From: an uncultured Acidobacteriota bacterium
Lineage (GTDB): Bacteria; Acidobacteriota; Terriglobia; UBA7540
NCBI GenBank assembly: GCA_963804995.1
Contig: CAWDSK010000003.1
Coordinates: 128,001-192,000 of the forward strand
Length of the DNA: 64,000 nt
Direction: 5' to 3'
Positions within the stretch are counted from its first letter, which is position 1; each line of letters starts with the position of its first letter. Both the position numbers and the translations under genes were made by a program. Under the pieces are notes generated by a model. That model was not told where the DNA came from. It worked only from the letters and a program-made list of their open reading frames with translations, and made no database searches. Shown here in pieces: positions 7,297-19,514 of this stretch.

Positions 7297-8562
7297 ATGA
7301 GCGTTCAGGAATCCGAGAAGGAACTGAGTGTCTACGAATCCATGGCGGTCAGGTTTGATGTGGCGGCCCGCAAACTGGGGCTCGACGAGGGATTGTTGAA
7401 GTATCTTCGTACCCCTAACCGCGAGATCATCGTCCACATTCCCGTGGCTATGGACAACGGCACACTGGGAGTATTCGATGGCTACCGCGTCCAGCACAGC
7501 ATCGCGCGCGGTCCCTGCAAAGGAGGGCTTCGCTACTCCCCCCACGTCACGCTGGATGAGATTCGCGGGCTCGCCGCTGAAATGACCTGGAAGTGCGCAG
7601 TCGTGAACATTCCCTTTGGCGGCGCCAAGGGTGGGGTTGTGTGCGACCCCTCTAAACTCTCCCTCGGCGAACTGGAACGGATTACGCGGCGCTACACGGC
7701 GGAGATTCTGGACTATATCGGGCCGGAGCGTGACGTGCCGGCCCCCGACATGAACACCAACGAGCAAACCATGGCCTGGATCATGGATACCTACTCCATG
7801 CACGTCCGCCACACGGTGACGGCCAGCGTGACCGGCAAACCGCTCGACTTGGGTGGCTCCGCAGGACGCCGCGAGGCGACGGGCCGCGGCTGCATGATTA
7901 CGGCGGACCAGGCGTTGGCACGCTTCGGCTGGAAGCGGGAAAGCACGCGGGTTATCGTGCAAGGATTTGGCAACGTGGGGTCGCAAGCGGCTCGCCTGAT
8001 GCATGAAGCGGGCTACAAAATTATCGGCGTCGCGGACATCACCGGCGGCGTGTTCAACACCTCGGGCATTGATATCCCCAGCTTGCTGGTGTACGTCGGC
8101 GAACATCGCACGCTGAAGGGCTTCGCGGGCGGAGAAAGCATTGGAACCCATGAAATCCTGGAACAAGATTGCGAAGTCTTGGTGCCCGCCGCCACGGAAA
8201 GCGTCATCACCAGCAAGAATGCCCATAAAGTGAAGGCGAAACTTCTGGTGGAAGGCGCTAACAGCCCCACCACGCCTCCCGCCGATGCCATTCTGTTTGA
8301 GCGCGGCGTGTTCGTGATTCCCGATATTCTGGCCAATGCCGGGGGCGTCACGGTTTCCTATTTCGAATGGGTGCAGGACCGGCAGGGTTACTTCTGGCCG
8401 GAAGATACCGTAAATGAGCGAATGAAACATATTATGATCTCCGCTTTTAACGACGTTGTGAGCTACGCCGAAAAACATAACGTCAATAACCGCATTGCCG
8501 CCTACATGCTGGCTATCGATCGCGTGGCGTTTTCGATTAAGCTACGCGGGATTTACGCCTGA
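7297..8562 (+). CDS. gdhA: Glu/Leu/Phe/Val dehydrogenase (glutamate dehydrogenase)
   Basis: [37 protein letters not shown]. Confidence 0.93.
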
Positions 8563-8813
8563 GGTTGCCGCGTCAGAATCAAATGCCGCTTCCCACGTGT
8601 TGTAAGACATTCACCTCAAGTCGTGGCGCGGAACAGGAGGGAGGACCCGCATAGGCGTTAAAATAAGCGCCGAATTGCTCTCGCGAGATTAAGGTACATT
8701 TTTCGAAAACAAGCCCACGTTGCGGAAACTTCCCTGGGTAGGCGGCTGCACGTCAAACTGAGCACGCGCAATGTTTCGGGTGCTCTGCCAAGACTAATTT
8801 CCTCGAAGCGGAG

Positions 8814-8966
8814 GTTGAGCTCTTCGCTCCGCTGCGCGGCCTTAATCTGGATTTTGAGCGCGAAAGGGACACCGGCCGGGATATCAACCTGTGAAGGGCT
8901 ATGCGGAACGTCAAGGACTTCGCCGGCCTCGGCGTCGTTCTCCTCAACCCCTGGGACGAGGCGTGA
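8814..8966 (+). pseudogene. Collapsed antitoxin/vapC remnant
   Basis: VELFAPLRGLNLDFERERDTGRDINL* (antitoxin-like C-terminus) overlaps GTG-KGY, followed out of frame by RNVKDFAGLGVVLLNPWDEA* (PIN toxin C-terminus). Confidence 0.7.
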
Positions 8967-9010
8967 ATCTTCAGGCCGCGGCGCTGCATTTATAGTGCGC
9001 TCGGCCCTCC

Positions 9011-9036
9011 CCACTAACCACTAGCCACTAACCACT
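9011..9036. repeat. Heptamer tandem repeat CCACTAR
   Basis: ccactaa ccactag ccactaa ccact. Confidence 0.75.
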
Positions 9037-9170
9037 TTCCTCATGACTCCGGACAGTTCTTTGTGTCGCTCTTCAGGCATCATTGTTCTTATAGAGCATC
9101 CGGCTTGCAGTTGCGGTACACTAAGGATTGAGATGGCTGGATCAATGCTCGTGGTCACACGAATCGACTC

Positions 9171-9458
9171 ATGGAATTTGAATGGGACGCCAAGAAAGCA
9201 GATTCGAACGTTGCGAAGCACGGCGTCACGTTCTCAGAAGCGATGACGGTGTTTGGGGACCCGCTGGAACTCGCGATTGCCGATCCAGAACACTCGGAGG
9301 ACGAATTCCGATTTCTCAGTATGGGCCAGTCGGCAATGGGACGCCTACTTGTAGTCGCCTACACTGAGCGCGAAGGCCGAACCCGAATCATCAACGCCCG
9401 GGAAGCGACTCCCCGAGAGCGGAGACAGTATGAATCAACACGTTCACCAAAACGATAA
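9171..9458 (+). CDS. brnT: BrnT family toxin
   Basis: MEFEWDAKKA..N..KHGVTF.EA..VF.DP...RIINAR.AT. Confidence 0.92.
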   Translation: MEFEWDAKKADSNVAKHGVTFSEAMTVFGDPLELAIADPEHSEDEFRFLSMGQSAMGRLLVVAYTEREGRTRIINAREATPRERRQYESTRSPKR

Positions 9459-9732
9459 CGACGAAATGCGGCCCGAGTACGACTTCTCGCACGGCGTTCG
9501 CGGGAAGCACTATGAGGCATACCGCGCCGGTACGAATGTGGTGTTTCTCGATCCCGATGTGGCCAAAGCGTTCGCCGATTCAGCTTCAGTCAATCAAGCC
9601 TTGCGCCTGCTCTTGCAGCTTGCCCGCACGAGCGCTCCCTTAGACATCCAATCTGGCAAGACGGTGCAGCCGAGTAACCGTGCCCCGCGCCGCGCCAAGA
9701 AGCCCAAGCCCCTTCGCGCCACTCGCGGGTAG
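9430..9732 (+). CDS. BrnA-type antitoxin
   Basis: EMRPEYDFS.GVRGK...VFLDPDVAKAF....VNQALR; overlaps brnT. Confidence 0.85.
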   Translation: MNQHVHQNDNDEMRPEYDFSHGVRGKHYEAYRAGTNVVFLDPDVAKAFADSASVNQALRLLLQLARTSAPLDIQSGKTVQPSNRAPRRAKKPKPLRATRG

Positions 9733-9734
9733 GC

Positions 9735-9955
9735 GCAGCAGGCAGTCTTGAATCTTGAATCCCGTGTCCCGCCTCTGACACCCGGCACCTGTGTTAGGCA
9801 GTAGGCAGCGGGCAGTAGGCAGTTTTTCCTAGCCCCCTGACACCCGGCACCGGACACCTTGCACTTAGCCCCCGAATCCCGAGTTCCGCACCTGGCACCC
9901 GACACCTGATACCTGCTTTTTCTTTCTCGCCACTCGCCACTAACCACTGGCCACT
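9735..9955. repeat. Cluster of mixed heptamer repeats (GGCAGTA, CACCYGR, CCACTVR)
   Basis: Period-7 tandem tracts visible across the interval. Confidence 0.7.
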
Positions 9956-10320
9956 GTTCTTACCCGTTCGAAATGCCGCGGACCTCACACGGCAGAGGTC
10001 CGCGCTAGGCTTGCTTGCTGGCAATCGCCAGCCAGCGGCGGTGCATTGGTTATGCATCACCAATGCTAGGGAGCGCAAATCTACGCCGCTTGCCTGGCCT
10101 CTCAGTGCTGAAAAAGAATCAATCGGAAGATATGGAAAGAAACGGGTGACAAAGCCGCGGCCCACCGCTAGAATAAAGCGCCGTCGGCGGGGCGACCAGG
10201 GAAGCCGCGGGCCTCGAGATACGTTGGTGATCTTTTATCAATAAATTCGCGAGGAGCAGGCCGCATTTCTAGAGGGGCGGTCGAACGCACGGATTCATCA
10301 CTGTTCAGCTTCCCAAGGAG

Positions 10321-10857
10321 GTGAGATTGAAAGCTAAGGCGAAAGCGTCAGCCGCGGTCATAAGCAGAGACGGAAAATATCGTTACAAGCTGTCCAGGCG
10401 TTGGACTCCGGGAAGTGATCGTGCTGTCTGGATCATGCTAAATCCGAGTACAGCAGACGCGATAGAAGATGATGCTACGATTCGACGGTGCATTTCATTT
10501 GCCAAGCGCTGGGGCTGCGACGGGATTGAAGTGTACAATCTTTTCGCATTACGATCGCGCCATCCGATCAGAATTGAGATAGTCGAGGATCCGGTGGGAC
10601 CGGACAATGACCTTTGGCTAAGCGTTGCGGCACAAACTACAGGAAAAGTAATTGCAGCATGGGGTGCATGCAATACACCGTTACAGTTGAGAAGAGCGAA
10701 TAAGGTGATCGAGTTCCTTCTCCGCGACCGGCGTGTTTTCGTATCCACTCTGGGCCTTACAAAGGGTGGCCAACCTCGACATCCACTTTACGTCCGAAAC
10801 GACACACCATTAACTCCCCTCGTTCACCCCCTAGGATTTAGCAAACAGTATCGATAA
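10321..10857 (+). CDS. DUF1643 domain protein
   Basis: YRY.L.R.W, IMLNPSTAD..DDATIRRC..FA, NLFALR, AAWG, PRHPLY. Confidence 0.9.
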   Translation: MRLKAKAKASAAVISRDGKYRYKLSRRWTPGSDRAVWIMLNPSTADAIEDDATIRRCISFAKRWGCDGIEVYNLFALRSRHPIRIEIVEDPVGPDNDLWLSVAAQTTGKVIAAWGACNTPLQLRRANKVIEFLLRDRRVFVSTLGLTKGGQPRHPLYVRNDTPLTPLVHPLGFSKQYR

Positions 10858-10954
10858 ACACGGATTTTCTGCCGACAAAAGGCGACGAAAGAGCTAAATT
10901 TGCGCAAATGCGAATCCCTAACTTATAGGAATGGAATGACTTACATTCTTAGTA

Positions 10955-11014
10955 ACAATATCTTACAAGTCCAAGATATTGTGCTTGACTTTCTTACAGT
11001 AATCGACGTAAGAT
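10955..11014 (+). promoter_or_regulatory. Promoter with two palindromic operators upstream of the six-gene operon
   Basis: ACAATATCTT-N8-AAGATATTGT (10955-10982); TTGACT-18-TAAGAT overlapped by TCTTAC-N10-GTAAGA (10992-11013). Confidence 0.65.
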
Positions 11015-11020
11015 TTGTTC

Positions 11021-11356
11021 ATGAATGCAGGAGAATTGACCCAAACACCGATTAAGACCCAACCCCAGGCAGTGCCAAGGATTGACCCTCTTGAGGTTCT
11101 GCGCGAGGTGCTCGAATTGCAACGCGAGAGTAGCCCGGAATTGGACGTCGAAGGGATGCTGGCCTTCGCGGTCGCAAATCCGACCACAGAAGTAGTGGAT
11201 TCGCTGGGCGCAGTAAGTATCGTTTGTGTTCTCTTCGGTGCGTACAAGCCTGACAATCTTATCCCGCAAAATCTTTTGACTCACGAGAACTTTAGCACGT
11301 TGAACGGACTAAGAAATGTTGTCAGAGAACTGAAGAAAAATCAAGGCAAACCATGA
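11021..11356 (+). CDS. Acyl-carrier-protein-like small protein
   Basis: VVDSLGAVSIV phosphopantetheine-site-like motif and C-terminal LTHENFSTL typical of ACPs; stop overlaps next ATG. Confidence 0.6.
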   Translation: MNAGELTQTPIKTQPQAVPRIDPLEVLREVLELQRESSPELDVEGMLAFAVANPTTEVVDSLGAVSIVCVLFGAYKPDNLIPQNLLTHENFSTLNGLRNVVRELKKNQGKP

Positions 11357-12327
11357 TGTCACCTGTTCGTTTAACCGATCTCACTCTGGAAATCACAAAT
11401 GCCTGCCATCATCGATGCGTGCATTGCAGTACGTATGGTGGGATACCTCGCGAAAACGAACTGACCCAAGATGAGCGACTCGATGTTTTGCGGCAAGCTT
11501 GCGCACTTGGTCTAATAGAGCTGCGCTTGCTTGGAGGGGAGCCGCTCTTACGCAAGGAAGACACATTCGAACTACTTGCGGAAGCCAATCGGCTTGGCGT
11601 GAAAAAAGCTCTGATATACACTTCTGCCGCTGAGAACGACTTTGGGTGGCTGACGACGTTACGCAACTTTGCTCCCATGGAAGTCTCCGCCGAAGCGAGT
11701 ATATACTCGGCGACGCAAGCAGTACACGATGGAATCACGGTAAAACCGCTCTCATTTGAGCGGCTACTCTCCAATTCCAAAGAGGCAGTGCAGGTCGGAT
11801 TCGATTTGAATTGGAACTTCGTTTGGATGAAACCGAATTTTTGGGAATTGGGACCTGTAATAGCACTAGCCTCGAAGATTGGTATTAGAAGAGTGCGGAT
11901 CCTGCGCTTAATGCTGAATGGGCGGGCGCGAGAAAACAGGGACACGTTGGAACTGCCGGCCGAAATGGAAATCCAGTGCGAGACGATTCTTAATTTGTTA
12001 ACCTCTCGCTATCCGGACGTTTTCATAGCTCATTCGAAACCACTTGTATTTCAGCTTGGGAGAAGCAACCACGATCATGTGGCTTCCTGCAGCGCCGGTA
12101 AAGGCCAGATTATCCTGCAGGCAGACGGTAGAGTCCTTCCTTGCATCGGGATGAAGGACACGCCGCAGCTTGAAATTGGAAATGTACGCATCGAAACTAT
12201 CGAAGACATTTTCTCACGCGCTCGCGGAATGAATTTCCCAGGAATGTCACAAGAGTATCGGGAATGTCCGGCGATCCAATTTCAAAAAACGCCAGAACTA
12301 ATCCAACTAACTCCAGGGAGGATTTAG
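11353..12327 (+). CDS. Radical SAM protein with SPASM/Twitch-like C-terminus
   Basis: CHHRCVHC (CxxxCxxC), GGEPLL, C-terminal CSAG...DGRVLPC...IGNV...ECP. Confidence 0.9.
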   Translation: MMSPVRLTDLTLEITNACHHRCVHCSTYGGIPRENELTQDERLDVLRQACALGLIELRLLGGEPLLRKEDTFELLAEANRLGVKKALIYTSAAENDFGWLTTLRNFAPMEVSAEASIYSATQAVHDGITVKPLSFERLLSNSKEAVQVGFDLNWNFVWMKPNFWELGPVIALASKIGIRRVRILRLMLNGRARENRDTLELPAEMEIQCETILNLLTSRYPDVFIAHSKPLVFQLGRSNHDHVASCSAGKGQIILQADGRVLPCIGMKDTPQLEIGNVRIETIEDIFSRARGMNFPGMSQEYRECPAIQFQKTPELIQLTPGRI

Positions 12328-12329
12328 GA

Positions 12330-12767
12330 ATGTCACCAAAGAGGGACATTGAACGTACGCTTAGCAGTGATCAGGAGCGTGCCTATCTTGCCCAGAAACT
12401 CAGAGAGGCTCGCGAGTACCTGGGACTGTCGCAGGAATACGTCTCGCAGCAAACGAATATGACGCGGCCGGCCATTTCTGAAGCAGAGGCTGGCAGACGG
12501 AAGGTCGAGAGTCTTGAACTAAAAAGACTAGCAACCCTCTATGGCCGCCCCCTTAATTATTTCTTGCCGGATCAAAATGGGATTGATCTCGACGGGTCTC
12601 GCGACGGGGTTTCCGAAAAAATAAATAGTGATCAGACCGAAATAAAACTACGAAACCTAACGAGGGACTTGCCATCCGAAGATAGGGAAGAGATTATCCG
12701 ATTCGCCGAATACTTGCGCCACAAGAAACAAGTGTCACAAACGCGCCGGGGCGTTGCTGCAAGATAG
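12330..12767 (+). CDS. XRE-family HTH transcriptional regulator
   Basis: LREAREYLGLSQE...ISEAEAGRRK; start moved to ATG 12330 after RBS. Confidence 0.9.
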   Translation: MSPKRDIERTLSSDQERAYLAQKLREAREYLGLSQEYVSQQTNMTRPAISEAEAGRRKVESLELKRLATLYGRPLNYFLPDQNGIDLDGSRDGVSEKINSDQTEIKLRNLTRDLPSEDREEIIRFAEYLRHKKQVSQTRRGVAAR

Positions 12768-12774
12768 GGATCCT

Positions 12775-13740
12775 ATGACTCGAGCCCAGTTGGTCACGGC
12801 TGCCAGCGGTGCAGCCTTGCTTGCCCATCGGAGGCACCATGTTGACCGCCAAAGGCGGATCGACGTGTTCGATATCCTCCGAGAGGTATCGAGCGAGGTT
12901 TTCTTTAGGCCGCTGCGAAAGGTGTGTGGTGCGTACCTTCCTAGTGACGGTCCTGTTCCTGCTGTCCTGATCAATTCGAATATGCCACTGAGTCGCCAAC
13001 GGTACACTGCTGCTCACGAGTTTGGCCATCTATTCTTAGGGCACAAAGTTGTAAGTCTTGATCAAGTAGTTGGCACCAGTTTTGAAGAACGTAAGAACTG
13101 GACCGATGAAGAGAACATCGCCGAAACGTTTGCTGCTTTCTTCTTAATGCCCCAGGGTTTAGTGGAGACCAGTCTACGTGAACTTAACGAAACGGAGATA
13201 ACCCCACAGACCGCTTACCTTCTGTCGCTGAAAATGGGCACTAGTTACTTGGCGACGGTCAATCACCTCCAAACTTTGAAGAAGCTGAATTATGCTGAGG
13301 CTGCCGAATTCCGAAAAATACAACCAAAAACGATAAAGGCGGAAATAATTCCCAGCGTTGCCAATAGGCACGACGTGTGGATTTTGGACGAGCGATGGAA
13401 TGATCAACCAATATACCCTGCGGTGGAGGACACGATTGTTGTTCGATTGGCTGAAACTCCCACTTCAGGGTATACGTGGGTTTGGCACAGGGACCCCGAA
13501 AGCCTTCGCGTCTTACAGGACGGATTCGCCGACGAACCCACACAGGAAATTGGGGGTGCCCGTGTACGCGAACTGGTAACGGAAGTATCGTCCGATGCCC
13601 ATGCTGAAAGAATCGATTTGGAACGGCGGCAACCGTGGGATGACAATGGCGAACCGTCAGCTCACTTCAGCGTGAATCTCTTCCCGCAGCAAATGAGGAA
13701 GAGCGGGCCTCTGGTCTTGCCGACGCTGGCCGCGAGCTGA
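12775..13740 (+). CDS. ImmA/IrrE metallopeptidase with C-terminal chagasin (I42)-like domain
   Basis: RQRYTAAHEFGH (HExxH), E..AETFAAFFLMP; C-terminal TIVVRLAETPTSGYTW...IGG...RRQPW resembles the I42 NPTTGYxW...GGG...RPW motifs. Confidence 0.85.
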   Translation: MTRAQLVTAASGAALLAHRRHHVDRQRRIDVFDILREVSSEVFFRPLRKVCGAYLPSDGPVPAVLINSNMPLSRQRYTAAHEFGHLFLGHKVVSLDQVVGTSFEERKNWTDEENIAETFAAFFLMPQGLVETSLRELNETEITPQTAYLLSLKMGTSYLATVNHLQTLKKLNYAEAAEFRKIQPKTIKAEIIPSVANRHDVWILDERWNDQPIYPAVEDTIVVRLAETPTSGYTWVWHRDPESLRVLQDGFADEPTQEIGGARVRELVTEVSSDAHAERIDLERRQPWDDNGEPSAHFSVNLFPQQMRKSGPLVLPTLAAS

Positions 13741-13743
13741 ATT

Positions 13744-14418
13744 ATGCACATAAGTGTTCGTGGTGCACAAACTGGCGTAAAAGACCAATATGACCGACCA
13801 ACATGTGTTGCTTTCGCGGTAACTGCTCTTCATGAGTACACCCACGACGTGTTGAAGGAGCTCAAAAAGGCGTCCGAGATCGACCTCTCTGAGGAATTTT
13901 TGTATTATCATTGCAAGCGACTTGACGGGTTAGGACCGAATTCCACTGGGACAACGATTTCGGCTGCTTCCACGTCACTTGCAGCGGATGGGCAATCCCT
14001 TGAGAGTTTGTGCCCGTACAAGGTGTCGTGCCCACCGGGGTTAATTACTCCCCCAGATCCCGGCGCTTTTGCTGATGGAAAAGCCCGGCGCCTCTTGGGC
14101 CTTCAGCAGCTAAACCTCTCCCTGTCGAGCATCCAGAACTCTCTCACTCTTTCGAAGCCAGTAATCGCAGTGTTGGATTGGTTTTCTAACGCGTATGTCA
14201 CCCAACTTGGCCGAATCGAAATTCCACGGACAACGGACCGCCTCCTTGGACGGCATGCCGTACTGATAGTTGAACTTGAAGAGGAGCCACGGGCTGGATT
14301 GTGCTTGATCACTTTCAAGAATTCTTGGGGTGCTAAATGGGGCGATAGCGGCTATGGTAGCTTCGGATTGGATTACTTCAGTGCATATGCGCGAGAAATC
14401 TGGGGAGTGAGCACCTAA
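13744..14418 (+). CDS. Papain-like (C1) cysteine peptidase, no signal or propeptide
   Basis: DQYDRPTCVAFA (Gln/Cys), LSEEFLY, RHAVLIV (His), KNSWGAKWGDSGYG (Asn). Confidence 0.9.
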   Translation: MHISVRGAQTGVKDQYDRPTCVAFAVTALHEYTHDVLKELKKASEIDLSEEFLYYHCKRLDGLGPNSTGTTISAASTSLAADGQSLESLCPYKVSCPPGLITPPDPGAFADGKARRLLGLQQLNLSLSSIQNSLTLSKPVIAVLDWFSNAYVTQLGRIEIPRTTDRLLGRHAVLIVELEEEPRAGLCLITFKNSWGAKWGDSGYGSFGLDYFSAYAREIWGVST

Positions 14419-14433
14419 AAGGAGAAGACCAAC

Positions 14434-15204
14434 TTGAGTAAGTTTTTTTCTTCGGCAACTTGCGCACATGCATGGGCCGACGCCATGGAGCACCTCATTG
14501 AATGTGAAGGGGGGAAGGATTTCAATCTTGTGATTGCGATCCAGAATCCGTGCGTTGAGATCCCAGAAGCAACGCGGGTTATAGATGAACTTGCTAAAGC
14601 CTGTGACCTAAAAGGCACGATGGAAAACGCAAACGCGATTTGGCCGTCGTTCTTCGCACGACCAAATAGGAAGAGCACTGAAGTGTTTGCTGACATTGAA
14701 CGCTTCGCGGTCCCGGCAATTAAGGCAGCGTGCAAGAATCGCCATGACTCCTATGTAGAGCGCCTAGTTGCTTGGCGAAGCGCAGATTCCAGCGAACCGG
14801 TTCCTCAGCTTCAGAACGTTTTGGCGCGACTTAAAAACGAGATTGGGAATCATGCCCCTAAGAGTTCGTCGTATGAAGTCTCAATTTATTCACCAGGTCT
14901 TGATGCGGGCTACATGAGTTTTCCATGTCTTTCTCACCTGTCCTTCAAATACGCTCACAATTGCGGCCTTCTTCATTTAACGGCCCTTTATCGGAATCAC
15001 GCCTACCTCAGCCACGCCTATGGAAATTTCATTGGATTGGGGAGGATGATGCAGTTTGCCTGCCGAGAGACGGGAACCCACCCAGGGGAACTCGTCTCAA
15101 TAAGCACCCACGCCGATTCAGAGATTGGTTCGGGGCGAAAATCTCGGACGCGTGAGGCGATTGTTCGCGTGAAGGAAATTTTATCCAAGCACCAGCAACC
15201 GTAG
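14434..15204 (+). CDS. Diverged thymidylate-synthase-fold protein
   Basis: FPCLSHLSF (catalytic PC), LTALYRNH...YGNFIGL aligning to ThyA QRSCD...PFN; TTG start after AGGAG. Confidence 0.7.
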   Translation: MSKFFSSATCAHAWADAMEHLIECEGGKDFNLVIAIQNPCVEIPEATRVIDELAKACDLKGTMENANAIWPSFFARPNRKSTEVFADIERFAVPAIKAACKNRHDSYVERLVAWRSADSSEPVPQLQNVLARLKNEIGNHAPKSSSYEVSIYSPGLDAGYMSFPCLSHLSFKYAHNCGLLHLTALYRNHAYLSHAYGNFIGLGRMMQFACRETGTHPGELVSISTHADSEIGSGRKSRTREAIVRVKEILSKHQQP

Positions 15205-15239
15205 CGCGGACCTGTTTTGCAGGTCCGCGGCTTTTTGTT
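15205..15239 (+). terminator. Intrinsic terminator closing the operon
   Basis: CGCGGACCTG-ttttg-CAGGTCCGCG 10-bp stem, then GCTTTTTGTT. Confidence 0.85.
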
Positions 15240-15554
15240 GTCGATGGGGGACGAGCCCGCTTTGGCCCGATTTCTGTTCATCATCGCGAACTCATAATTC
15301 ACCTTTCACCATTCACTCTTCACAATTCTCCCCGCCCATGCGAATATTCCCATCCAACCGCCAAGACCGAGGTTCAAACCATGGCCAACCCGGAGGAGCA
15401 GTGACAAGTGGCAACTACGATGGCAGGTGAGATTGGGTAGAACTGCGCCACCACCCGATTAATGGGAAGGTGAGCATGTTTGGTGCTACAATGATGAAAG
15501 GAAGCCCTGTGCTAGCAAGAAGCCACTTGGCCCAGGGGTTGCAGAGACGAATCC

Positions 15555-15782
15555 ATGACGATCACGGCAAAATATGAAGATGGCGTCTTCAAGCCCTTGG
15601 AGAACGTGCGCATCATCGAAGGGACGATAGTTGAGGTCCGCGTGCCCTCCGACGCCGGCCGTCCCGAGAACAAGGCGCAGTCGGTTGGGGATTTCGCCTT
15701 CTACGGCATGTGGAAGGACCGGACGGACATCGGTGACAGCGTGGAATACATCAGCAATCTCCGTCGTAATCTTCGGGGCTGA
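15555..15782 (+). CDS. AF2212/DUF104-like antitoxin
   Basis: MTITAKYEDGVFKPLE.V.I.EGT.VEV...FYGMWKDR.DI.DSVEYI. Confidence 0.8.
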   Translation: MTITAKYEDGVFKPLENVRIIEGTIVEVRVPSDAGRPENKAQSVGDFAFYGMWKDRTDIGDSVEYISNLRRNLRG

Positions 15783-15802
15783 AAGCTTCTTTCCAACTTT
15801 CC

Positions 15803-15845
15803 ATGCCTTACTTGATAGACAGCGATGTCCTGATTGACATATCAG
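15803..15845 (+). pseudogene. Truncated vapC (PIN) N-terminus
   Basis: MPYLIDSDVLIDIS PIN start motif downstream of an antitoxin; similarity is lost afterwards. Confidence 0.65.
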
Positions 15846-16225
15846 CGCCATCACGGGATTGCGCCTGGAAATTCCTGGTTACTAGCGCGACTTTGCCTTC
15901 CACCCTCCAAAACCGGTTAGTACCGCGCGGCGACGCCGCAACCAAAATCTTGGTCCAGGTCCAGGCCAAAGCGCCCAGACTTTCAGCTACACCGCGCCGC
16001 GAATTCCAAGCGATCCACCTGGCTGGTTAGACGCCAAGCCATGGACGTGCCCCGTGCACTCAAGCTCCCCGGGGTTCTGGGAATCAGCTCCTGGGTTGCC
16101 GCCCCAGCGTTTACCGATCCACGCAACTCTGGACGGTTGACGGGGGAAAACAAATCACCTGGCCGGTAACGGCAGGGGTGCGAGGCGCCTCCAGTCCGGC
16201 TTATTTTAACGCCTATGGAGGACCC

Positions 16226-16942
16226 GTGAGGGGGAAGTCAGGCTCCGCACTAAGAATTCATTACCTGCAACACGTTCCCTTTGAAAAACCCGCCAGAATC
16301 GCTACCTGGGCTCGCCGCCAAGGGCACACTTTCAAAGGGTCAGGCCTCTATCGCGGAGAACCTCTCCCTTCACTCGCTGATTTCGACTGGCTGGTTATCA
16401 TGGGCGGGCCGATGAGCGTGCACGACGAAGGCCTCTATCCCTGGCTTACCGATGAGAAAAAGCTGATCGAACGCGCCATAAAAGCACGCAAGCGAATTCT
16501 GGGCGTTTGCCTGGGCGCCCAGCTCCTTGCGGATGTTTTGGGAGCGAAGGTCTACCGGAATCCGCACAAGGAAATCGGCTGGTTTCCTGTAAATCTGACT
16601 CCTCACGCTACACCGTCAAGTCTGCTGGCTGACTTCCCGGAAAGCTTTAGGGCCTTCCACTGGCACGGGGAGACATTTGAACTTCCTAGGGGCGCACGGC
16701 ATCTGGCCACTAATCACGCCTGCAAGAATCAAGCCTTCGAATTCGACGGGACCGCGCTGGGCGTGCAATTCCACCTGGAGGTTACTCCGAGTGTCGTGCG
16801 GGCGTTAATCCAGAACTGTCGAGCTGACATCGGCTCAGGCCAATATCAGCAAACCCCTGATCAAATACTGGCGCGCCCTGAAGAGTTTGGTATGATTAGG
16901 CGGCTCTCGTATAGAATGCTCGATCGGCTTGCTGCGTCTTGA
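16226..16942 (+). CDS. Type 1 glutamine amidotransferase (GMP-synthase-like)
   Basis: IHYLQHVPFE, MGGPM, GVCLGAQ, HWHGE, QFHLE; GTG start at the edge of the TSD. Confidence 0.9.
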   Translation: MRGKSGSALRIHYLQHVPFEKPARIATWARRQGHTFKGSGLYRGEPLPSLADFDWLVIMGGPMSVHDEGLYPWLTDEKKLIERAIKARKRILGVCLGAQLLADVLGAKVYRNPHKEIGWFPVNLTPHATPSSLLADFPESFRAFHWHGETFELPRGARHLATNHACKNQAFEFDGTALGVQFHLEVTPSVVRALIQNCRADIGSGQYQQTPDQILARPEEFGMIRRLSYRMLDRLAAS

Positions 16943-18804: not shown

Positions 18805-19514
18805 CATAGGCGTTAACCTAAGAGTTCGATGCGTCCGAAAGCCCGCAAAGCGGGCGTAAGGTCGTAGCCCACTGCGTAAGCGGTGGGTAAAGAAATCGTG
18901 TAAAATTCCCGCCCAGCCCCGGAGGGGCGAAAGGACATGTCGCACACCTACACCAACCTGCTAACGCACGTTATTTTCAGCACCAAGTACCGCGAGCCAT
19001 TGATTACCTCGGCACTCCAAGACGATCTGCTCGGCTACGTGGGCGGAATTGTGCGCGAACTGGGCGGGGCGCTCCGGGCCGCGAACGCCCGACCGGACCA
19101 CGTGCACCTGCTCTGCTCGCTGCCGCCCACGGTTGGGACGGCGGACGCCTTGCGGGTCGTGAAGACCAATTCCTCACGTTGGCTACACCGCAGCCGGGGT
19201 TTTCCCCGATTCGACTGGCAAACCGGCTATGGAGCGTTCAGCGTCAGTCATTCCCTCGCACCCGCCGTTGTGCGGTACATTCGCGAGCAGGAGAAACACC
19301 ATCGCCGCGTAACGTTTCAGGAAGAATTCATAGACTTTCTGAAGAAGAACGGCATTGCGTATGATGAGCGCTACATTTGGGCGTGAATCCTTTCGCCCCT
19401 GGCGGGGCTTAGGGGAGAGAGGCGCGTCTTTTCCCACGGCTTACGCCGTGGGCTACGACCTTTCGCCCGCTTTGCGGGCTGTCAGCATTTCTGAGAGTTA
19501 GGTTAACGCCTATG
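18805..19514. mobile_element. TIR-bounded element enclosing an IS200-like tnpA and its palindromic ends
   Basis: CATAGGCGTTAACCTAA (18805-18821) and exact reverse complement (19498-19514); inner imperfect inverted arms 18840-18935 and 19388-19480. Confidence 0.8.
18937..19386 (+). CDS. tnpA: IS200/IS605-family Y1 transposase (REP-associated type)
   Basis: HVIFSTK.R, PDHVHL (HUH), WQTGYGAFSVS, YIREQEKHH. Confidence 0.92.
   Translation: MSHTYTNLLTHVIFSTKYREPLITSALQDDLLGYVGGIVRELGGALRAANARPDHVHLLCSLPPTVGTADALRVVKTNSSRWLHRSRGFPRFDWQTGYGAFSVSHSLAPAVVRYIREQEKHHRRVTFQEEFIDFLKKNGIAYDERYIWA

Follow-up and report, generated by a model that had tools for sequence, protein, structure and literature searches.

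What task could unite a carrier protein, a radical-SAM enzyme, a repressor, two peptidases and an enzyme of the thymidylate synthase (TS) fold in a single bacterial operon? The question is raised by a six-gene locus of an uncultured Acidobacteriota bacterium, which lies in a 64,000-nt stretch of contig CAWDSK010000003.1 (assembly GCA_963804995.1; forward strand, positions 128,001-192,000); this whole stretch is called the window, and all coordinates follow its numbering. We conclude that the six genes are one real, horizontally acquired operon. Within a widespread, mobile and uncharacterised cassette family, they represent the lineage-specific form of Acidobacteriota. As for its function, we favour with moderate confidence an inducible anti-phage or conflict system that is held under a protease lock and directed at nucleotides or DNA bases of the uracil type. 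The six open reading frames (ORFs), arranged head to tail, are as follows.

11021..11356, plus strand: gene 1, acyl carrier protein (ACP)-like carrier protein, 111 aa (profile search and AlphaFold2 (AF2) model)
11353..12327, plus strand: gene 2, radical-SAM/SPASM enzyme, 324 aa (Pfam)
12330..12767, plus strand: gene 3, XRE-family helix-turn-helix (HTH) repressor, 145 aa counted from the 12330 ATG (Pfam and PADLOC)
12775..13740, plus strand: gene 4, fusion of an M78 (ImmA/IrrE) metallopeptidase and a chagasin (I42) domain, 321 aa (Pfam and PADLOC)
13744..14418, plus strand: gene 5, papain-family (C1) cysteine peptidase, 224 aa (Pfam)
14434..15204, plus strand: gene 6, TS-fold enzyme of a distinct family, 256 aa (structure and profile comparison)

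The starts of genes 1, 3 and 4 were adjusted to the ortholog lengths of 111, 148 and 321 aa, respectively; the longest ORF of gene 3 begins at 12264. Successive genes are separated by -4, +2, +7, +3 and +15 nt, and the GC content of 10501-15000 is 0.47-0.53 against 0.54-0.65 in the flanks. An initial annotation, made from the DNA letters, had described six co-directional, tightly packed genes more AT-rich than their surroundings, and both features are borne out by these values; its six domain calls are likewise upheld by Pfam, NCBIfam, profile, Foldseek and VIA-align evidence.

A gene 6 profile gave 188 matches in 185,579 species genomes (one genome per species), and the best 80 loci were examined; genes in them were counted by tblastn and phmmer searches with the window proteins against crude longest ORFs. 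XRE and IrrE genes are adjacent in this order in 72 of the 80 loci and missing in eight, two of which are cut by a contig end. The XRE, IrrE, C1 and TS-like genes are all present in 50 loci, a carrier protein is detected by family hidden Markov models (HMMs) in 67, and a radical-SAM homologue occurs in 11, where it adjoins the TS-like gene. All six window genes are found in eight loci (L001-L008), all from Acidobacteriota. Many phyla and one archaeon keep the gene order carrier-XRE-IrrE-C1-TS-like; among the hosts are Acidobacteriota, Actinomycetota, Bacillota, Pseudomonadota (alpha, beta and gamma), Myxococcota, Verrucomicrobiota, Planctomycetota, Nitrospinota, Chloroflexota, Bdellovibrionota, Binatota and Zixibacteria. 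The neighbourhood search that the initial annotation had proposed as a check of its candidate system thus returns the four core genes together and in conserved order.

Gene 6 has the TS fold and belongs to a family of its own. Its sequence has no Pfam match, PF00303 included, and a single-sequence search of the PDB gave nothing useful; the NCBIfam archaeal TS model TIGR03283 matches it with an E-value of 1.3e-9 and 37.9 bits, against a cut-off of 174.55. The AF2 model, with a predicted local distance difference test score (pLDDT) of 94.8, is related by Foldseek to thymidylate synthases and MilA at E-values of about 1e-10, and VIA-align gives Z scores of 18.2 for 9iqc, 16.5 for MilA, 16.3 for ThyA and 12.5 for T4 dCMP hydroxymethylase, at 9-16% identity to the compared TS-fold structures. 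Residues P164-C165, R187 and G197-N198 are invariant across 72 family members, and in an HMM alignment to the Lactobacillus casei TS the invariant columns fall on the Pro-Cys, one Arg and the Asn; they leave unmatched the folate-site Asp of TS and both Arg residues of the partner subunit. We take C165 to be the TS nucleophile, R187 the phosphate-binding Arg and N198 the base-reading Asn, so that gene 6 combines the fold with a Pro-Cys nucleophile and a base-reading Asn. An assignment as thymidylate synthase was rejected, as the protein scores under the family cut-offs and lacks the full phosphate-binding Arg set and the folate-site residues. From this fold and these residues we infer the reaction: because the Cys and Asn are kept and the Arg set and folate Asp are mostly missing, gene 6 should activate C5/C6 of a uracil-type base, probably without folate. 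Among 1.84 billion representatives the family comprises 624 clusters at E<=1e-30 and 1,259 at E<=1e-10, the top 150 of which are all 240-305 aa long; on two annotated plasmids the TS-like gene is labelled 'hypothetical protein'. A complex prediction with two copies of gene 6 and one of gene 1 scored 0.01, which is no answer and evidence neither way.

The single sequence of gene 1 has no Pfam match and no useful PDB match. A profile of 44 homologues, small proteins that hold the same position in relatives, matches solved ACPs at an E-value of 4.7e-8, and Ser63 of a VDS motif (residues numbered from the TTG at 11015) is invariant in 44/44 and is the sole invariant Ser of the alignment. The AF2 model (pLDDT 81) places helices at residues 25-39, 45-54, 63-76 and 96-110, with Ser63 opening the third of them, which is the four-helix architecture of an ACP with its conserved Ser, in a D-S-L-like motif, at a helix start. 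The top Foldseek rows are all carrier proteins at a weak E-value of about 0.1, and the ACP call therefore leans mainly on the profile search. Three genes of the phosphopantetheinyl transferase (PPTase) family are present elsewhere in the window genome.

Gene 2 overlaps gene 1 by 4 nt and is translationally coupled to it. It carries Pfam domains Radical_SAM (2.7e-13) and SPASM (9.4e-6), with a CxxxCxxC motif near residue 17; its best NCBIfam match is PqqE (2.7e-27), and mycofactocin and sactipeptide enzymes are also among the best, all of them far under their cut-offs. PADLOC returned weak matches to the prokaryotic viperin (pVip), an identity that was rejected, since model NF038283 gives 29.5 bits against a cut-off of 180 and SPASM-type maturases score better. 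Two loci show a minimal three-gene form, a TS-like gene, a radical-SAM/SPASM gene and a fusion of uracil-DNA glycosylase (UDG) with SocA/Panacea (L062:6986-9903 and L072:859-3758), which has no XRE, IrrE, C1 or carrier gene; in L062 this form lies beside an integrase and an ISL3 transposase. In the Bryobacteraceae locus L008 (3940-4916) two overlapping ORFs of 173 and 168 aa take the place of an intact radical-SAM gene, possibly through a frameshift or an assembly error.

Three features beyond the six genes bear on their expression and extent.

10952..11014, plus strand: promoter and two candidate XRE operators (promoter scan and ortholog alignment)
15205..15239, plus strand: terminator-like hairpin, which is also the right copy of a REP-like repeat
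10321..10857, plus strand: DUF1643 protein, 178 aa (Pfam PF07799)

The promoter scan found a promoter-like TTGACT-18-TAAGAT at 10985-11014, with TTGACT as the -35 and TAAGAT as the -10 hexamer; the remaining promoter-like matches are about as many as chance predicts (5 against 3.6). Candidate operator 1 is the imperfect palindrome GTAACAATATCTTAC at 10952-10966, and candidate operator 2, TCTTAC-N10-GTAAGA at 10992-11013, overlaps the -35/-10 region. Both are unique in the window, and operator 2 was matched in 0/100 shuffles. When eight acidobacterial upstream regions are aligned, the block GCTTGACTT, which holds the -35 hexamer TTGACT, is invariant in 8/8, the adjoining CTTACA half-site is invariant at 4/6 positions, and a GTAAGA-N3-TCTTAC-type palindrome is common to all. 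Downstream of gene 6, the hairpin at 15205-15239 has an 11-bp stem with 8 GC pairs and is followed by a T-run, so that the one promoter and one terminator of the initial annotation both stand. The position of the operators at the gene 1 promoter, their conservation and their uniqueness in the window suggest that the XRE protein regulates its own operon from a single promoter; the sequence fits one autoregulated unit transcribed from before gene 1.

Gene 3 matches Pfam HTH_3 (8.5e-10) and PADLOC capH (1.2e-5), and its homologues stand directly 5' of the IrrE gene in 72/80 loci. In gene 4, residues 49-143 match Peptidase_M78 (3.1e-10), and PADLOC reports capP (1.3e-17) and PDC-M69B (9.6e-15); the HExxH motif and the third Glu ligand (H88, E89, H92 and E120) are kept in 72/72 homologues. 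The pairing of XRE with IrrE that had been read from the letters is therefore matched by the capH/capP profiles. Pfam finds no GAF domain in gene 4, the C-terminal domain being Inhibitor_I42 where CapP and IrrE have a GAF sensor. By homology to ImmR/ImmA, DdrO/IrrE and CapH/CapP, gene 4 would cleave the gene 3 repressor, and the same analogy suggests that the operon may be induced by DNA damage or phage.

The feature that sets gene 4 apart is the chagasin domain, which spans residues 224-307 (Pfam 9.9e-10; 39.0 bits, cut-off 27.2). Its loops TPTSGYTW, GG and RRQPW resemble NPTTG, GxGG and RPW, which we take to be the chagasin motifs. Gene 5, encoded next to it, consists of the C1 domain alone (Peptidase_C1 9.8e-9; 36.0 bits, cut-off 20.7) and has neither signal peptide nor pro-domain, as its catalytic Cys is already at residue 21. 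Its catalytic set is conserved in homologues, with Q15 in 49/51, C21 in 50/51, and H171, N193 and W195 in 51/51. Judged by the catalytic residues kept in the M78 and papain domains, both proteases look active. A papain that resides in the cytoplasm and lacks a pro-domain requires an inhibitor, and the chagasin domain fused to the M78 peptidase is the evident candidate. The distribution of the domain agrees with this role. A C1 peptidase gene is found in 51/80 loci; the chagasin Pfam match is present in 45/50 IrrE proteins from C1-bearing loci, with four of the five misses still aligning with the loop-6 Trp, and in 0/22 from C1-less loci. Among the 72 gene 4 homologues, the loop-6 Trp is kept in 49 and the loop-6 P-W in 44-49, and the 21-22 gaps are the proteins without a chagasin domain. 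The C1-less loci occupy two parts of the tree, an 18-row actinobacterial clade and L036; one member of that clade, L042, begins too near the contig end for C1 to be scored. Domain content and co-variation thus point to the gene 4 chagasin domain as the predicted lock on gene 5.

What the locked enzymes might act on is suggested by the company that they keep in relatives. A MazG + MazG_C protein occurs in 49/80 loci, HMUDK_hel, of the 5-hmdU-DNA-kinase family, in 55/80 and at least one of them in 62/80 (counts from Pfam on 111/115 HMM hits); the two are fused in L063. A PPTase gene is frequent, and Tmk, a PF00303 TS homologue and dCTP deaminase recur. Outside the acidobacterial clade the usual form of the cassette has such extra genes following or flanking the TS-like gene. 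A UDG-family gene is present in eight loci that lack HMUDK_hel and DUF1643 in nine, so that an HMUDK_hel, UDG or DUF1643 partner is found in 72/80 loci; on a quick tree this partner label needs six changes. The window genome, which is 92% complete, contains neither HMUDK_hel nor MazG_C, while the HMUDK_hel search was positive in two control genomes.

Just upstream of gene 1 in the window is the DUF1643 gene (PF07799, E 2.8e-39), which also matches phrog_3230, a PHROG of unknown function, at 5.6e-54. The six genes plus this upstream gene are found in seven of the 80 loci (L001-L007); as it is kept in 7/8 six-gene relatives, the six-gene boundary drawn by the initial annotation was too narrow. 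In the eighth, L008, an HMUDK_hel gene stands upstream in its place. DUF1643 occurs in two separate clades, one in Acidobacteriota (L001-L007) and the other in Bacillaceae (L013 and L017). It may have a UDG-like fold; hhalign of nine DUF1643 against three UDG sequences gave a probability of 0.1%, and neither the single sequence nor the profile found a meaningful PDB relative. In the portions of the literature available, DUF1643 turns up in work on SCCmec-type elements and Stenotrophomonas phages, contexts that mark it as a common mobile-element gene without an assigned role. It probably fills the slot of a DNA-base-recognising partner that HMUDK_hel or UDG holds elsewhere. By gene content, then, the acidobacterial variant carries a radical-SAM enzyme where relatives have MazG or kinases, and DUF1643 where they have HMUDK_hel or UDG.

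The surroundings of the operon hold the following features.

7297-8562: glutamate dehydrogenase gene (gdh), flank
9171-9458: BrnT toxin gene, with an ORF downstream at 9430-9732 that has no Pfam match
9971..10015, strand unassigned: left REP-like palindromic repeat
15555-15782: AF2212-like antitoxin gene
16178-16942: GATase gene
18937-19386: IS200-like Y1 transposase gene

A DeoC-type aldolase gene and a ribulose-phosphate epimerase gene, both housekeeping, also belong to the flanks. The spacing between gdh and GATase is 7.66 kb here and 340 bp in one congener (G007), where the site is empty; in three others (G006, G013 and G015) the island is on other contigs, and gdh and the aldolase gene are close together. 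A tblastn search with gene 6 found 23 plasmids, 13 of them predicted to be conjugative and one archaeal (Haloarcula), and 0 matches in 50,697 phage records. Two annotated plasmids show the order (PPTase)-hypothetical-HTH-ImmA/IrrE-C1-hypothetical. The Haloarcula marina plasmid NZ_CP100410.1 (L083, 1618-7807) carries a full cassette, consisting of tmk, a nucleotide-kinase-domain protein, PPTase, a small protein, HTH, ImmA/IrrE, C1 and the TS-like gene, beside a restriction endonuclease gene. The tree of TS-like proteins mixes phyla. Mobility is supported by the low GC content, the empty site, the other island locations in congeners and the plasmid copies. A prophage origin was rejected, as the flanks hold no phage genes and no phage record matched.

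The initial annotation placed the locus on an element with terminal inverted repeats and a target-site duplication, and this did not hold. Inverted repeats do flank it, at 9971-10015 and 15194-15235, with a left core GCGGACCT-N10-AGGTCCGC at 9978-10003 and a right core at 15206-15228. The palindromic GCGGACCT-N(3-14)-AGGTCCGC, however, has two copies in the window, 25 on the contig (C3) and 79 in the 7.55-Mb genome, which identifies the flanking copies as a dispersed REP-like repeat and not as island ends; inspection of the flanks by eye showed no target-site duplication. The reading as such a transposon was therefore rejected. The repeat and the IS200-like Y1 transposase at 18937-19386 may form a pair of the REP/RAYT type. 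The interval from gdh to GATase (8559-16217) appears as a variable hotspot that holds BrnT and its downstream ORF, the cassette, the AF2212-like antitoxin and dispersed repeats; such repeats recur elsewhere in the genus, e.g. those at 8647-8820, 15194-15394 and 16070-16218. The toxin-antitoxin (TA) surroundings that had been claimed for the locus are real, with BrnT on one side and the AF2212-like antitoxin gene on the other.

It is proposed that these parts work as follows. The XRE repressor encoded by gene 3 would bind the two TCTTAC/GTAAGA palindromes over the promoter of gene 1 and keep the operon silent. Upon a cue of stress or infection, the M78 domain of gene 4 would cleave the repressor and the operon would be derepressed. 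Until this switch fires, the chagasin domain of gene 4 would plug the active site of gene 5 and hold the peptidase inactive. Gene 6 would act on a uracil-type base, present in a nucleotide or within DNA, by activating its C5/C6, and Ser63 of gene 1 would bear a phosphopantetheine arm that delivers or accepts the group involved. The radical-SAM enzyme of gene 2 would take the role of MazG or the kinases, and DUF1643 that of the base-recognising partner. The outcome would be a pyrimidine pool or a replicating phage DNA that is modified or poisoned. The regulators, the protease lock, the carrier and the TS-fold active site are under clear selection, and the genes that accompany the cassette in relatives suggest an inducible anti-phage modification of nucleotides or DNA bases of the uracil or thymine type. 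Defence-type genes are among these neighbours: an HMUDK_hel fused to an MmeI/Eco57I-type enzyme in L048, a restriction-type helicase in L013, SIR2 and Nmad3 in L011, the UDG-Panacea fusions of L062 and L072, and a restriction endonuclease on the Haloarcula plasmid. Some of the enzyme families found in relatives also make up DS-4, a validated anti-phage system (see below). The initial annotation had likewise seen a conflict system in these genes, an interpretation that is reasonable but unproven, and partly supported.

Several points weigh against this proposal. In contrast to CapH/CapP, the regulator genes are located mid-operon, and since the domain that senses single-stranded DNA in CapP, GAF, is replaced here, a different trigger may apply. 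A dedicated PPTase gene is missing from the operon, though many relatives carry one. Because HMUDK_hel and MazG_C are missing from the window genome, the link to chemistry of the type of the defence system DS-4 is by family association and not through common components. The co-variation of chagasin with C1 comes from few independent events, as the C1-less loci fall in only two parts of the tree. The sample of 80 consists of the most query-like loci, many of them kin, with crudely called ORFs, and several of the family HMMs were built from the same loci. A search of sequencing runs found the locus in no RNA run, and in DNA runs only at a small share.

The cassette could alternatively serve a hypermodification of the restriction-modification type, in which it marks thymine or uracil positions of the host or of the element itself, linked nucleases tell unmarked DNA apart and the XRE/IrrE pair only tunes expression. 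Such a role would account for the phage thymidine-hypermodification toolkit in relatives, namely HMUDK_hel, PF00303 TS, Tmk, MazG and dCTP deaminase, that appears in the available parts of two papers on phage DNA (PMC5889632, PMC8989533). It would also suit L048, where a 1,724-aa MmeI/Eco57I-type methylase with a target-recognition module and a C-terminal HMUDK_hel (8839-14013, minus strand) is convergent with the cassette and may be a restriction enzyme reading modified thymine, as well as the restriction-type genes that adjoin L013 (a helicase) and the Haloarcula plasmid cassette. The window genome, however, has neither HMUDK_hel nor MazG_C, no nuclease gene adjoins the operon, and a repressor/protease switch with an inhibitor lock suits an emergency response better than constitutive marking; we consider hypermodification unlikely. 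If the cassette were a selfish addiction or regulatory module, the XRE/COG2856 genes would be a TA-like pair, papain and chagasin a toxin and its inhibitor, and the enzymes cargo without an immune role. XRE + COG2856 pairs are indeed classed as TA-like mobile stress modules in the accessible text of one paper (PMC2701414), and TA genes flank the island, which is patchy in the genus and has copies on plasmids. This explanation appears improbable to us, since a gene order conserved over phyla and an invariant TS-like active site argue for the enzymes as the core purpose of the cassette and against a role as exchangeable cargo.

The overlap of genes 1 and 2 by 4 nt, together with PqqE and the mycofactocin and sactipeptide maturases as the best radical-SAM matches, raises the further thought of a cluster for a peptide made by the ribosome and modified after translation (RiPP) or a small molecule, with the SPASM enzyme modifying the gene 1 product, the papain removing a leader and an antibiotic or cofactor being made. 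The product of gene 1, however, has an ACP fold with an invariant Ser and is not a variable core peptide; radical SAM is found in 11/80 loci versus 67/80 for the carrier, transporter and immunity genes are absent from the locus, and L062 and L072 have radical SAM, TS-like and UDG genes without a carrier gene. A RiPP cluster is accordingly a very improbable reading. The inducible, protease-locked conflict system thus remains the account that we prefer. A specific form of its chemistry, to which we attach little weight, is that Cys165 of gene 6 makes an exocyclic-methylene (C5=CH2) intermediate on a 5-substituted uracil, in a nucleotide or inside DNA, which is trapped by the phosphopantetheine thiol of gene 1 or by a Ser63 modified by the radical-SAM enzyme; the resulting carrier-nucleobase conjugate would form on invading DNA or in the pool and be trimmed by released gene 5. 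If this were true, conjugation of a protein to a nucleobase would be an immune effector, licensed by a metalloprotease that has an inhibitor in the place of its sensor domain.

If the preferred reading is true, the cassette has a two-protease licence in which a zinc protease that cleaves the repressor bears, as part of its own chain, the inhibitor of another protease, of the papain type, and a carrier protein, plus its own PPTase in most relatives, has been recruited to nucleotide or DNA-base chemistry. Gene 6 would represent a new TS-fold family (the 624 clusters at E<=1e-30), probably folate-independent, and the enzymes of the cassette may prove a source of useful new activities that modify pyrimidines. 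From the radical-SAM/DUF1643 variant it can be seen which parts of the cassette are exchangeable, which narrows the search for a common substrate. The occurrence of the family in >10 bacterial phyla, on conjugative plasmids and on one archaeal plasmid implies a function that is broadly useful to hosts.

The remaining question is whether the locus belongs to a system already described. Of the six genes, PADLOC recognises just the two regulators and NCBIfam names no member; the initial annotation knew of no named system with these genes, and neither resource matches the set as a whole. Neither a fusion of chagasin with IrrE nor this set of genes was described in the literature searched, and among the matches listed no paper joins chagasin with IrrE, ImmA, M78 or COG2856. 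The regulatory half most resembles CapH/CapP, ImmR/ImmA and DdrO/IrrE, in which the gene after the XRE HTH repressor encodes a zinc peptidase of the M78 HExxH type. According to the available parts of two studies, pairs of the CapH/CapP type de-repress adjacent operons via repressor cleavage after DNA damage (10.1101/2022.04.27.489752; 10.64898/2026.05.16.725639), and in CapP the peptidase and a C-terminal GAF domain, with a cysteine-switch loop, hold single-stranded DNA between them (10.64898/2026.05.16.725639). Gene 4, in contrast, has a chagasin domain in place of GAF, the pair lies inside the operon and not upstream of it, and a papain-like peptidase always follows the pair when the chagasin domain is present; papain, chagasin and thymidylate synthase go unmentioned in those parts of the two studies (10.1101/2022.04.27.489752; 10.64898/2026.05.16.725639). 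The lock shares with known chagasin (I42)/C1 pairs an I42 Pfam match over the cut-off and a target C1 peptidase with a full catalytic set, but differs from them in that a metalloprotease carries the inhibitor as one of its domains and that a single operon encodes both partners, which are cytoplasmic. With ThyA, MilA, T4 dCMP hydroxymethylase and the flavin-dependent dCMP monooxygenase (9iqc/9iqu), gene 6 shares the fold, the P-C motif and the aligned Asn, whereas it scores under the Pfam and NCBIfam cut-offs and keeps R187 as the only classical phosphate Arg.

Two systems of nucleotide chemistry come nearest to the enzymatic half. Phage thymidine hypermodification employs a dUMP hydroxymethylase, 5-HMUDK, aGPT-Pplase and a radical-SAM isomerase, as far as the accessible text of two papers goes (PMC5889632, PMC8989533), and the cassette relatives resemble it in their TS homologue, kinase, HMUDK_hel, MazG and dCTP deaminase, and in the use of radical SAM on modified thymidine. 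The cassette differs in being cellular or plasmid-borne, with 0/50,697 phage records, and in having a protease switch and a carrier protein; carrier proteins and peptidases are not mentioned in that text, which describes the radical-SAM enzyme of phage M6 as SPL-like, while gene 2 is of the SPASM/PqqE type (PMC5889632, PMC8989533). DS-4 ('NTTI', DefensePredictor, DeWeirdt et al., Science 2026), in the parts of that report available to us, combines TS, a dNMP kinase, HMUDK_hel, TIR/NDT-like and Nmad2 components and protects E. coli from phages; MazG, MazG-C, aGPT-Pplase and UDG systems are predicted there, untested (PMC13092281). Its listing (Table S8, PMC13092281), as far as accessible, includes no XRE/IrrE switch, papain/chagasin pair or carrier protein. 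Membership of the window locus in DS-4 was rejected, as the genome has no HMUDK_hel and the operon no kinase or Nmad domain; the TS of DS-4 is moreover PF00303-type, whereas gene 6 has no PF00303 match, and the TS fold is the sole common part. The cassette relatives, by comparison, carry HMUDK_hel (55/80), PF00303 TS, Tmk and Nmad3 as DS-4-like components, and DS-4 is the closest validated relative of the system.

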